Below, in pieces: positions 17,401 through 22,366 of a stretch of DNA of 64,000 bases (positions are counted from its first letter, which is position 1; every line of letters starts with the position of its first letter). The stretch covers positions 1 through 64,000 of the forward strand of contig JAEWMQ010000059.1 of assembly GCA_023393125.1 (NCBI GenBank), written 5' to 3'. A model generated the notes under the pieces. It was not told the origin of the DNA. It saw nothing but the letters and a program-made list of their open reading frames with translations, and made no database searches. The stretch is from Bacillota bacterium. Its GTDB lineage: Bacteria; Bacillota; Clostridia; Lachnospirales; Cellulosilyticaceae. Position numbers and translations under genes: made by a program.

Positions 17401-17420
17401 CTTGGGGGATTTGGCTGCAT

Positions 17421-17439
17421 AAATTGAAATTTGTAGGGG
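17421..17439. repeat. Left copy of an 18-19-nt direct repeat bounding the ORF-free block
   Basis: aaattgaaatttgtagggg matches aaatttcaatttgtagag at 18153-18170 at 16/18 positions. Confidence 0.4.
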
Positions 17440-17460
17440 CGTTTATGAAAAAAGGCTTGT

Positions 17461-17662
17461 GGGAGGAAATGGAAGGGGCAGGCCTATCTTCCAGTGTTCC
17501 GGTTCAAATTTTTTGAGGCACTAGGCTTACTTATTTGGATGAACGCACGAAAACTCCCGCTGGTCAGACACTCGTGCTAAAACCCATCCAAAACGTTCGC
17601 CAAGTGCCTCTAAAAAATTCTCCCAAGTCACCCTTCCAGATAGCCCTCCCCCTTCCATTTCA
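17461..17662. ncRNA. Candidate structured RNA: ~200-nt extended imperfect hairpin (6S-RNA-like or MITE-like)
   Basis: Outer arm 17461-17494 pairs with 17633-17662 (13 bp perfect, ~23/29 overall). There is an internal asymmetric bubble. An inner 16-bp stem pairs aattttttgaggcact (17506-17521) with agtgcctctaaaaaatt (17603-17619). Further inner stems are tggatg/catcca and gcacga/tcgtgc. GC-rich relative to flanks and ORF-free. Confidence 0.3.
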
Positions 17663-17748
17663 GCCAAACGTTGCCTAGCACATAAACGTCTCTACAGTGA
17701 GATGCACAGTGAAAAACATTATGCCCTTCCAAACGTACAAGCATAATA

Positions 17749-18130
17749 ACATATAGAGCTTCTTAATAGTTTGTTGTGGTAAAGGAGTAGCCATGCCAGT
17801 AGGGGATTGATGTGTGGTTCTTTAGATATAAGCTTAGTAATTCTTAATGGAGGGTTTCTCAGGCATCCCTTCAGCCTTAATAACGTATAAAGTTTCCTAA
17901 TAGTGGGTTATTGTAAAATAGTAGCTATATAGGGAGGCTAGTGGACTTGCTGGAAGATGCCTTGGAGCAGAGCTTAGAAACTCTTAATGAAGTAATCCTT
18001 ATGGGTTTTAGGGTGAGTGTCCCCGCGTAGCGAGTTTTCACCCGTTCATATGGATTACGAATTTAGAGTTTCTTAGCGGAGTGAGACAGCAGCTGTAAGC
18101 AAGTACACTAGTCGGACTACATAGCGGTGC
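17749..18130. repeat. Five degenerate tandem repeats (period ~60-95 bp) sharing an AGYTT...CTTAATRG core
   Basis: Cores at 17756-17768 (agcttcttaatag), 17831-17850 (agcttagtaattcttaatgg), 17891-17903 (agtttcctaatag), 17971-17990 (agcttagaaactcttaatga) and 18065-18079 (agagtttcttagcgg). Each is followed by a G-rich segment. Confidence 0.4.
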
Positions 18131-18152
18131 TTTGCTTTACGCCTTATTATTC

Positions 18153-18170
18153 AAATTTCAATTTGTAGAG
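18153..18170. repeat. Right copy of the direct repeat bounding the ORF-free block
   Basis: aaatttcaatttgtagag. See the left copy at 17421-17439. Confidence 0.4.
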
Positions 18171-18214
18171 TTAAATCATTAAGTCTGAACTTAATATAAA
18201 TAGATTTCTTTAAA

Positions 18215-18255
18215 TAGTAGAACATCAAAAAACACATCCTAACTTAGCTAGGATG
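18215..18255. terminator. Bidirectional rho-independent terminator
   Basis: aaaaaaCACATCCTAACttaGCTAGGATGTGttttttg. A 10/11-bp stem flanked by A6 and T6. It terminates the minus-strand flotillin gene and any plus-strand transcript of the upstream block. Confidence 0.8.
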
Positions 18256-18265
18256 TGTTTTTTGA

Positions 18266-20479: not shown

Positions 20480-20528
20480 CAAAAGCTCTATAACTAACTA
20501 AAATGATACTTCTAGTTAGCTATAGAGC
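20480..20528 (-). terminator. Rho-independent terminator after the nucleotidyltransferase pair
   Basis: AAAGCTCTATAACTAACTaaaatgatacttctAGTTAGCTATAGAGCTTT. A 17/18-bp stem immediately 3' of the stop at 20531. Confidence 0.6.
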
Positions 20529-20530
20529 TT

Positions 20531-21517
20531 TCATTTATAATAATAACTTTCGTAAATAGATTCTATTAGCTTTTGGGCTTTATCTTGTCGTGGCCTCTCT
20601 GGTAACTTGGTAAGCTGAGCTGCTTTATTAAAATGCTTTTCATAGCTATCTACAATTTTAAATATCTGGTCCCAGCTATACTCTCCATGCCTAATACTTA
20701 ATAATGTAGGTAAGTGTTTCTCTAATCTTGTGTGAATACCCTTGCCTTCTAATATATACGTGCCTGTTATCAGTATTCTTACTAAATGCATGGCATGCTT
20801 ATATAATTTACTTTCTTCTTTCTTATGATTACGATGTGTAAGCTTTTCATAGCTTTTGATAGTATTAGTCATATTGGCATAAATACTTGTGAAATCTCTT
20901 AAAGGGTAATCTTCTAAGTGAATGGTCGTTCTTAGATCTTGGCTCTCTCCATCCACATAAACGACTATACTGTCTTTATCAAAAGAAGTATAATCATCAT
21001 TAAATTGTTTAATTTGTCTGGAAATTGTAGCTGCTATATGCTGCTCCTTTAATACTTGGCTGGCACTATTTTGTGCTAGCGCATTTTGAAGTCTTCTAAG
21101 CTGAGCCATTGCATAACCACCAAAAGTATCTGCAACTTTTTGAGATAAGAAAAGCTCTGTATTGTCTCTTAGAAGCTTTCCTTGTGGTGTCATTTGATAA
21201 ATGCAATCTTCATCTATGCCTAATAATTCCAAGGTTTGGGGGTTGGCATTCAATCCTAATCTTACAAATTTCTTTAGGCCAAAGATAACTGTGTCTGTAT
21301 GAAGGTCTTCGTACTGTTCAAAGCTTTCTAATCCAAATAGTACTTCCTTTCCTTCTATGGTACAGCCACGTAAATCTATATCGCTATTTTCATATTGGGT
21401 TCCATAACCGTATGAGCCACTCACCACTAAATATAAAATTCTATCGCCTAGCGCCTTTTCGTTATTTAAAAACTCATAGTCTTTACTTTCTAATTGCTCT
21501 GTAACTTCTATTTTCAT
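20531..21517 (-). CDS. Pol-beta-superfamily nucleotidyltransferase, paralog B
   Basis: The ORF runs to 21529 (GTG). The probable ATG start is at 21517 (MKIEV…), preceded by AGGTGAG. NTase motif VSGSYGYGTQYENSDIDLRG (GS-x10-DxD). C-terminal helical region. 8 nt downstream of paralog A. Confidence 0.7.
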   Translation of the reverse strand: MKIEVTEQLESKDYEFLNNEKALGDRILYLVVSGSYGYGTQYENSDIDLRGCTIEGKEVLFGLESFEQYEDLHTDTVIFGLKKFVRLGLNANPQTLELLGIDEDCIYQMTPQGKLLRDNTELFLSQKVADTFGGYAMAQLRRLQNALAQNSASQVLKEQHIAATISRQIKQFNDDYTSFDKDSIVVYVDGESQDLRTTIHLEDYPLRDFTSIYANMTNTIKSYEKLTHRNHKKEESKLYKHAMHLVRILITGTYILEGKGIHTRLEKHLPTLLSIRHGEYSWDQIFKIVDSYEKHFNKAAQLTKLPERPRQDKAQKLIESIYESYYYK

Positions 21518-21525
21518 CACTTCTC

Positions 21526-22302
21526 TCACCTAATTAACCAATTTCTAAAACACTCATCTAATAACTTTGCCTCTTTAAGTGCTGTAGTTGGTTTAGCTTC
21601 CTGTAAATAGTCATCACAGACTAATAAAACTTTTTCTATATAACCAAGCAACTTAGTGTGAGGTCCTATGACATAAGCTTCATCTACAGTTACTTTTAAT
21701 TCTATTAAATATTTAATCTCTGATATTAACTCTAGTTCTAGATTTAAGCTTTCCATAAGCTGATTGATTTCCATTGGTGGAATACTATGATGGTTTAATA
21801 CATAATCACAAGCTAATGCACTTCGTAAAGCATAAAAGTAAGCCTTCAGTTTACCTAATGGCGTTTCCTTGATTTGTTGCACTTTGTTATAAGCTAAGCT
21901 TTTGTAGTGGTATAGTGCTGTTTTCTCATTAAAATAAATCACCGCTAATGCCATACATTGCTCTCTAAACTCCTTTTCTTCCCGATAAACAATCGGAGAC
22001 TGTAACCACTCCCATACTGTTGGGTTAGATTTTCTGATATGAATGAGTAGCTTTTTTAAATCCCAACCATCTACATCATATACCTCATCTACAGGAAGGC
22101 TTATATGGTCTGTTACTTCTCCTATGGTTAAATATTTCTCCAAAGACTGAGTATATACAAAACGACAATCATAATCTGAGTCAATCGAAGGGAACCCCCA
22201 TCCCCTACTTCCTGATTCTATGGCCATTAAAATATGAATGTGCTTTTCATTTTCCAGTTCATTTAAAGTTTGTTTAATATTATTTACAATCATTGGATTC
22301 AT
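21526..22302 (-). CDS. Pol-beta-superfamily nucleotidyltransferase, paralog A (ANT(6)/KNTase-like or RlaP-like fold)
   Basis: 258 aa. Motif AIESGSRGWGFPSIDSDYDCRFVY (GS-x10-DxD). Resembles the streptomycin adenylyltransferase core EGSR…DYDITYFV. Confidence 0.7.
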   Translation of the reverse strand: MNPMIVNNIKQTLNELENEKHIHILMAIESGSRGWGFPSIDSDYDCRFVYTQSLEKYLTIGEVTDHISLPVDEVYDVDGWDLKKLLIHIRKSNPTVWEWLQSPIVYREEKEFREQCMALAVIYFNEKTALYHYKSLAYNKVQQIKETPLGKLKAYFYALRSALACDYVLNHHSIPPMEINQLMESLNLELELISEIKYLIELKVTVDEAYVIGPHTKLLGYIEKVLLVCDDYLQEAKPTTALKEAKLLDECFRNWLIR

Positions 22303-22366
22303 TTTTTCCCTTTACCCTTCCTATAACTTTTCTTTATTATAGCTTATGTATCAAATTTTTTATGGC

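Follow-up and report, generated by a model that had tools for sequence, protein, structure and literature searches.

In the 64,000-nucleotide (nt) stretch of DNA analysed here (hereafter the window; positions 1 to 64,000 of contig JAEWMQ010000059.1, assembly GCA_023393125.1, from a bacterium of the Cellulosilyticaceae), two adjacent minus-strand genes, the short gene A and the long gene B, encode members of the RlaP family of nucleotidyltransferases (NTases). We found that the pair probably represents two co-expressed, active RlaP enzymes for RNA or tRNA 3'-end repair, as judged from family models, active-site residues, gene coupling and the neighbours of homologous genes. An earlier description made without database searches (the sequence-only reading) had presented the pair as NTases of unknown function. 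Its two open reading frames (ORFs) of 258 and 328 amino acids (aa) and the NTase motifs quoted from them (ESGSRGWGFPSIDSDYD in the gene A product and SGSYGYGTQYENSDIDL in the gene B product) were confirmed, while "unknown function" proved outdated, the family having been shown to add nucleotides at RNA 3' ends (bioRxiv 10.64898/2025.12.29.696909).

The gene A product matched the Pfam model PF10127 RlaP ("RNA repair pathway DNA polymerase beta family") over residues 8-240 with E = 2.7e-64 and 217.7 bits, and the gene B product matched the same model in two stretches with E = 1.3e-24 and 87.8 bits, the curated gathering cut-off being 23 bits; neither A nor B matched any other Pfam family. Because both proteins match PF10127 far above its cut-off and no other family, we favour a role in RNA repair for both, and among the resemblances offered by the sequence-only reading the one to RlaP stood. 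In BLASTP, 87 aa of the catalytic core aligned between A and B at 30% identity (E = 2e-4), so the two are paralogues, as had been proposed, but distant ones. Indeed, they fall into different subfamilies: A belongs to phrog_14344 (E = 1.2e-60, A-type), which is found in phiKZ-like jumbo phages and is frequently labelled "YcgL", and B belongs to phrog_388 (E = 5.4e-47, B-type), which is found in Clostridioides phage AR1086-1, Bacillus phages, and mycobacteriophages. A literature search on YcgL/NrdC.11 returned nothing on function.

The catalytic residues G31, S32, D41, D43, and D76 of A were invariant in an alignment of 48 homologues, as were G34, S35, D46, D48, and D75 of B in an alignment of 54 sequences, and the B residues were retained in 29/29 B-type proteins from all paired clades and phage singletons. 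The signature GS-x10-DxD, previously ascribed to both proteins, holds for B, with 10 residues between G-S and DxD, but not for A, in which the spacing is 8 residues. On these residues both A and B would be catalytically competent, and neither resembles a pseudo-enzyme. Individually, A and B are ordinary members of a named Pfam family with generic annotation in public genomes. Look-ups of the exact sequences assign the window to Cellulosilyticum: ADZ82315 (A) and ADZ82317 (SPFH) of Cellulosilyticum lentocellum DSM 5427, which share 90%-identity clusters with the window proteins, are annotated "nucleotidyltransferase domain-containing protein" and "SPFH domain-containing protein" and nothing more specific.

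AlphaFold2 models of A and B (predicted local distance difference test scores of 95.4 and 89.3, respectively) both displayed an N-terminal NTase core built on a beta-sheet and, after it, an all-helical C-terminal domain that ends in a long helix, which agrees with the helical C-terminal domain already proposed for both proteins, and B carried an extra insert of ~85 aa (roughly residues 150-235) made of helices and a beta-hairpin. On the Pfam match and the models together, A and B are bona fide Pol-beta-fold NTases with helical C-terminal domains. The nearest solved folds found by Foldseek were KNTase/ANT(4') (PDB 1KNY, 6UN8) and the Hailong NTase HalB (PDB 9DBJ), with weaker matches to LinB, ANT(4')-IIb, ANT(6)-Ib, and AAD(9); the best folds for model A had query-normalised template-modelling (TM) scores of 0.43-0.46 at 11-14% identity, and those for model B had TM scores of 0.22-0.35 at 9-11% identity. 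PDB sequence and profile searches with A and B reached no solved-structure relative, including no ANT, HalB, minimal NTase (MNT), or CD-NTase.

That antibiotic NTases head the solved structures, with ANT(4')/KNTase first and LinB, ANT(4')-IIb, ANT(6)-Ib, and AAD(9) after them, is what would recommend A and B as antibiotic-modifying enzymes (aminoglycoside or lincosamide adenylyltransferases), a function that we regard as extremely unlikely. The fold matches to antibiotic NTases are weak overall (TM 0.25-0.46, 9-15% identity, root-mean-square deviation 7-16 Å), no aminoglycoside/lincosamide NTase family in Pfam was matched by A or B at E <= 0.01, and neither protein matched any NCBIfam model, the set by which NCBI names resistance genes. 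Moreover, the context shows no resistance cassette or mobile element, the two genes lie on the chromosome and are conserved within Cellulosilyticum, and their homologues are linked to RtcB, Ro60, and CCA-adding enzymes. The likeness to ANT(6), KNTase, and lincosamide NTases, which the sequence-only reading had ranked equal to that with RlaP, comes down to a generic fold (TM ~0.45, 14% identity, no model match).

A second possibility, that the pair is an anti-phage defence or nucleotide-signalling module of the CBASS/CD-NTase-like, Hailong HalB-like, or MNT-type toxin-antitoxin kind, is highly unlikely, even with HalB among the top Foldseek matches (E ~1e-4, TM 0.43-0.50), type I restriction genes next to some A-only loci, and an abundance of the family in phages. 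CD-NTase (CdnD) fold matches had a probability of ~0.1, MNT was matched at E = 0.16-0.76 over only ~25-45 residues round the motif, profiles of A and B did not reach HalB, MNT, or CD-NTase in the PDB, and no PADLOC defence model matched A, B, DUF3267, or SPFH (PADLOC v2, of 2023, is older than the description of Hailong). No HEPN, effector, or sensor gene was present in Pfam and PADLOC scans of the neighbours, as the sequence-only reading had noted, no neighbour is conserved, and the neighbours that recur are RNA-repair genes. The resemblance to conflict-system minimal NTases was therefore not borne out, and the suggested antibiotic-modification or signalling/defence module found no NCBIfam, ANT Pfam, or PADLOC match behind it. 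Both readings draw on generic fold similarity, and the sequence models and the genomic context contradict them.

The arrangement of the two genes points to a single expression unit. Gene A runs from an ATG at 22302 to a TGA at 21528-21526, and gene B from an ATG at 21517 to its end at 20531, so that exactly 8 nt, GAGAAGTG (21525-21518), lie between the stop of A and the start of B. A Shine-Dalgarno-like AGGTGAG at 21531-21525 covers the final sense codon and the TGA stop of gene A, and the ribosome-binding site inside the 3' end of A and the 8-nt gap that had been described from the sequence were both confirmed at 21531-21518. A GTG at 21529 offers an alternative start for gene B (332 aa, 4-nt overlap with gene A), and public gene calls are divided between the ATG and this GTG; we favoured the ATG because the spacer between AGGTGAG and ATG is 7 nt. 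Directly 3' of the gene B stop lies a terminator-like hairpin with a 20-bp stem followed by UUUUGU (-32.1 kcal/mol, z = -8.1; 0/200 shuffles folded equally well). Because this hairpin closes it, the pair appears to be a compact, self-contained bicistronic unit separate from the downstream SPFH gene. The A/T-rich region 5' of gene A (Table 1) possibly holds a promoter for gene A; a consensus promoter scan of this region gave no convincing -35/-10 pair, so that transcription may also read through into gene A from the upstream gene. Read from these signals, genes A and B would share a joint transcript, be translationally coupled and end at the strong hairpin.

Conserved pairing in other genomes had been posed beforehand as a test, and pairs were found across phyla. 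A metagenome scan with the A-type alignment gave 80 loci, whose genes were classed by locally built A-type and B-type hidden Markov models (HMMs). These loci comprised 21 with A followed by B, six with B followed by A, and 21 clear singletons, the remainder being undeterminable. The same short-then-long pair is present in Clostridium manihotivorum (258 + 330 aa) and, in the Bacteroidota, in Mucilaginibacter gotjawali (251 + 354 aa). In a neighbour-joining tree of A-type proteins, pairing followed the clades: one large clade was all A-then-B, a separate clade was B-then-A, and other clades were all singletons, with the window A grouping with the Clostridial A-then-B pairs. The pairing is thus real and conserved across phyla, but only in particular clades. 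Most homologous pairs overlap by 4 nt (ATGA) and some others lie 1-2 nt apart, and the overlaps point to translational coupling there as well. Further, the distances among A partners and among their B partners were correlated (mirror-tree r = 0.60; the highest value reached in 2,000 label permutations was 0.40), which fits co-inheritance of the pair.

Both subfamilies also occur alone. A reciprocal search of IMG/VR viral contigs with the B-type alignment gave 280 confirmed matches, of which 80 loci were retained, and 79 of the 80 have B without A. Cellular B genes were paired in four further lineages, but A. clariflavus (genus Acetivibrio) and another contig each had B without a partner. At one B-type singleton, a 187-aa ORF with no Pfam match ends 2 nt 5' of the B gene (L176:4435-4998) and may represent a partner that has degenerated or diverged strongly. 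A genome-contig scan with a single protein returned two Microbacterium loci only (Actinomycetota; L005/L006:5860-6639), each with an A-type gene (type-A HMM ~178 bits) without B, followed by a 546-aa ORF.

Whether A and B form one enzyme is a separate question. An obligate heteromeric NTase with composite active or substrate sites, in which neither protein works alone in this lineage, is conceivable but doubtful. The translational coupling seen here, with its 8-nt gap and a Shine-Dalgarno sequence in the stop of A, the 4-nt overlaps of most homologous pairs, the adjacency kept in both gene orders and across phyla, and the co-divergence of the partners (r = 0.60) would all suit such an enzyme, and so, by analogy, would the nearest solved fold, KNTase/ANT(4'): two identical KNTase subunits form a dimer whose active sites lie between them. 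However, each subfamily is abundant on its own (21 A singletons, 79/80 phage B loci, and the lone Acetivibrio B), and the full catalytic set is kept by both proteins in every clade, neither looking like a degenerate regulatory subunit. Moreover, no A-B fusion was found when a concatenated A+B query was searched against 5.8 billion proteins, the best of 8,000 scored candidates covering <=57% of the query (a weak negative), and the Pseudomonas RlaP is active as a single protein with the cleft within one chain (bioRxiv 10.64898/2025.12.29.696909). One apparent fusion, P0127 (an ENA metagenome protein of 512 aa matching "PF18765+PF10127+PF01909"), was ruled out as an assembly or gene-call artefact, its residues ~33-199 being exactly duplicated. 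"Obligate" co-expression and a heteromeric enzyme, both put forward in the sequence-only reading, are unproven.

The neighbours of homologous genes speak for RNA repair. Among A-type loci RtcB was the commonest neighbour (11 loci, mostly adjacent); WYL regulators, Ro60/TROVE, and SPFH/Band-7 came next, along with type I restriction genes in one sublineage. Within ~5 kb of A-then-B loci, RtcB was present in 4/20 and TROVE in 3/20, and ~30% of the loci with homologous pairs adjoin RtcB or Ro60. The locus of C. beijerinckii reads Ro60/TROVE, RtcB, a 108-aa gene, A, and B. Among the viral B loci, a CCA-adding tRNA nucleotidyltransferase (PolyA_pol head plus HD) was present in 63/80, usually directly downstream. 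We favour RNA repair as the function of A and B because the C. beijerinckii pair sits in a Ro60-RtcB locus, because RtcB is the commonest neighbour of A-type genes, and because most viral B loci carry the CCA-adding enzyme. A survey of the neighbourhoods of homologues, proposed earlier as a choice between defence islands and resistance cassettes, thus showed recurring RNA-repair genes, type I restriction genes only near some A-only loci, and no resistance cassette at the window locus.

Two of these settings have further features. Genes for a class-V aminotransferase and a metallophosphoesterase commonly lie upstream of viral B, and one phage cluster (L099:3145-7359) consists of a metallophosphoesterase (196 aa), a class-V aminotransferase/cysteine-desulfurase-like protein (404 aa), a B-type RlaP (340 aa), and a CCA-adding enzyme with HD (448 aa); about 60 IMG/VR loci (L099-L166) are similar, and the cluster resembles a phage tRNA-repair or tRNA-modification cassette. 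In the sublineage with restriction genes (L016, L019, L030, L037; e.g. L030:1603-7434), HsdS and HsdR genes of type I restriction come first, then an A-type singleton, and after it the genes for a conserved 350-aa protein without a Pfam match and a 203-aa tetratricopeptide-repeat protein, possibly a defence-island setting for single RlaPs.

Previous work by Carruthers, Fatma & Huang described PfRlaP of Pseudomonas fluorescens and PaRlaP of P. aeruginosa, whose genes lie between rtcB and rtcA (bioRxiv 10.64898/2025.12.29.696909). These enzymes attach one or two nucleoside monophosphates (NMPs, or dNMPs) to an RNA 3'-OH, DNA being no substrate, with a preference for the 3' end of the 5' half in a cleaved-tRNA mimic, and a single purified protein is active in vitro; the authors proposed that RlaP replaces nucleotides cut away by "smart" ribotoxins, e.g. 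RloC (bioRxiv 10.64898/2025.12.29.696909). By homology to these proteins we infer an RNA substrate and a repair role for the pair in Cellulosilyticum. Each enzyme would most likely use nucleoside triphosphates to add one or a few NMPs to the 3'-OH of RNA, chiefly tRNA, that has been broken or trimmed, A and B would in this way replace nucleotides lost to ribonuclease toxins, and a ligase (RtcB-type or 5'-phosphate-type) or a CCA-adding enzyme, encoded elsewhere in the genome, would finish the repair. The short and the long subfamily would probably divide the labour, differing in the RNA ends they take, in nucleotide preference, or in the order of addition, and the two proteins may or may not associate physically.

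Several points weigh against the repair role. None of the genes for RtcB, TROVE, WYL, RNA ligase, or Ro60 lies within the 64-kb window, and in ~70% of paired loci the 5 kb around the pair hold no RNA-repair marker. The enzymes studied so far are Pseudomonas RlaPs, which may or may not belong to the A or B subfamily, and the biochemical basis for RlaP is one preprint, whose authors concede problems, e.g. a 3'-OH product that is incompatible with RtcB (bioRxiv 10.64898/2025.12.29.696909). The preprint also leaves open how a promiscuous adder of 1-2 nucleotides restores a functional tRNA (bioRxiv 10.64898/2025.12.29.696909).

A more specific version of the repair role, which we consider improbable, would make the short and long paralogues a dedicated two-enzyme machine (heterodimer or ordered relay) with complementary specificities, rebuilding a defined di- or trinucleotide removed from tRNA by 'smart' ribotoxins. 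If true, such a machine would be analogous to the split CC- and A-adding enzymes, and repair would be more accurate than with a promiscuous single RlaP. The RlaP family counts one biochemical study so far, and the coupled pair, which recurs in Clostridia and Bacteroidota and is kept even where neighbouring genes are deleted, offers a testable refinement, namely that two specialised enzymes may cooperate. For annotation, we suggest that the pair be labelled RlaP-family RNA 3'-end nucleotidyltransferases (putative RNA repair) and not resistance or defence genes.

Table 1. Features of the two-gene unit and its immediate neighbours in the window
Feature	Position	Strand	Basis and remarks
Gene A, short RlaP-family nucleotidyltransferase	21526-22302	minus	ORF; 258 aa; A-type, phrog_14344, 'YcgL-like'
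Gene B, long RlaP-family nucleotidyltransferase	20531-21517	minus	ORF; 328 aa; B-type, phrog_388
Coupling junction A/B	21518-21531	minus	read from sequence
Intrinsic-terminator-like hairpin	20484-20529	minus	terminator scan and RNA fold
A/T-rich intergenic region 5' of gene A, 64 nt	22303-22366	minus	carries gene A ribosome-binding site (GGAAGGG) and TATAAT hexamer
Upstream neighbours of the pair: flavin mononucleotide (FMN) reductase, DUF2087, DUF3267			Pfam
Downstream neighbours of the pair: 682-aa SPFH/Band-7, major facilitator superfamily (MFS) transporter			Pfam

Close relatives of the window separate the pair from the genes around it. A 95%-identical relative (L167) has the same gene order as the window, and 87%-identical relatives have FMN reductase, A, B, and MFS in succession, without DUF3267, DUF2087, and SPFH. 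Because these 87%-identical relatives keep the pair although those three genes are missing, we take A-B as the conserved unit and do not count DUF3267 and SPFH as its partners. The zincin-like DUF3267 protein, which the sequence-only reading had considered as possibly co-transcribed, was rejected as an operon partner on this ground. The SPFH/Band-7 protein was likewise rejected as a partner at the window locus: the window protein misses the PaFlo8-subfamily HMM, and the gene is deleted in the 87%-identical relatives. In those relatives (L168:8734-8961 and L169:2198-2425) SPFH remnants only are left, ~86 nt from the start of the gene and ~150 nt from its end together with the terminator, and since short remnants of both ends persist, the gene has been deleted internally there, next to an intact RlaP pair. 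What had spoken for SPFH as a partner was its presence in three RlaP loci and the location of PaFlo8 of P. aeruginosa in the rtc locus (PMC13086221).

Further features of the window and its relatives are recorded here. Neither ARAGORN nor Rfam scans at gathering and at permissive thresholds detected a Y RNA or tRNA-like RNA near the pair, the permissive matches there being far below the gathering score. The only RNAs that scored are at the start of the window, where positions 1-195 on the minus strand hold a tRNA-Gly(GCC) (1-73) and a 5S rRNA (78-195) and an rRNA operon ends. The ~865 nt that separate the MFS gene from the SPFH gene (17401-18265) contain no ORF >47 aa, have a G+C content of 40.8% (33.9% for the window) and include an imperfect internal inverted repeat (~78 nt, 74% identity), with no Rfam match and no other copy; this segment is absent from L167, where the MFS-SPFH distance is ~140-190 nt, and it appears to be an insertion. 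In one 87%-identical relative, the region a few kb upstream of A-B (L168:1312-3219) contains fragments of a polymorphic-toxin locus (Tox-REase-7, HEAT, RHS/YD-shell) as well as an Rpn-like gene.

When the pair was compared with known systems, the closest by fold proved to be remote by sequence. KNTase/ANT(4') and HalB share the arrangement of a Pol-beta NTase and a helical domain with the models of A and B, but at TM scores of only 0.3-0.5 and 9-14% identity and with no sequence-profile relationship; the substrate of KNTase is an aminoglycoside, HalB polymerises dATP as a defence signal, and their genomic contexts differ from that of the A-B pair. A comparison of the models with ANT, KNTase, and CD-NTase structures, which the sequence-only reading had proposed as a check, gave only a weak fold likeness. 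Hailong consists of the HalB NTase and the membrane effector HalA, whereas the sole adjacent membrane protein in the window, DUF3267, is absent from the 87%-identical relatives that keep A-B. In MNT-HEPN toxin-antitoxin systems an NTase of ~100-140 aa accompanies a HEPN toxin, whereas the window proteins, of 258 and 328 aa, have large helical domains and no HEPN neighbour.

Phage RlaP homologues, such as T4 NrdC.11 and phiKZ PHIKZ237 ('YcgL'-annotated, A-like) and those of Clostridioides phage AR1086-1 and many IMG/VR contigs (B-like), belong to the same two subfamilies as A and B and are 25-48% identical to the window proteins, and the phage B genes adjoin CCA-adding enzymes and other genes of RNA and nucleotide metabolism. 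Unlike the window, phages nearly always carry one type only.

The nearest characterised relatives are PfRlaP and PaRlaP, of a family of >10,000 sequences whose name, in the account that the preprint gives of Burroughs & Aravind (2016), reflects some PF10127 genes that share operons with RNA ligases (bioRxiv 10.64898/2025.12.29.696909). In the PfRlaP crystal, an N-terminal NTase and a C-terminal helical domain, whose terminal helix packs back, enclose the catalytic cleft between the domains of one chain (bioRxiv 10.64898/2025.12.29.696909). Like these proteins, A and B match the family model and share the G-S/DxD/D set, their AlphaFold2 models suggest a comparable NTase-plus-helical architecture, and homologous pairs are found in RtcB/Ro60 loci as in the Pseudomonas setting. 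Unlike the Pseudomonas rtcB-rlaP-rtcA arrangement with its single RlaP, the window has two divergent, translationally coupled members and no ligase gene in 64 kb, and its B protein has an insert of ~85 aa. The words "tandem", "paralog", and "dimer" do not occur in the text of the RlaP preprint, and no mention of paired RlaPs was found in the accessible RlaP literature, the 2016 defining paper lying outside that search.

In function, the pair may be likened to the split CCA-adding system, in which two paralogous template-independent NTases act in turn on one RNA 3' end. Some bacteria in this way possess one class II tRNA nucleotidyltransferase that adds CC and another that adds A. The analogy is functional only, as those enzymes belong to another NTase family (PolyA_pol head domain) and their genes are generally not adjacent. 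A prediction of what RlaP does dates from 2016, and biochemical proof for one subgroup came in late 2025; set beside these systems, the recurrent short-plus-long pair is a nuance of gene arrangement and no new kind of system.

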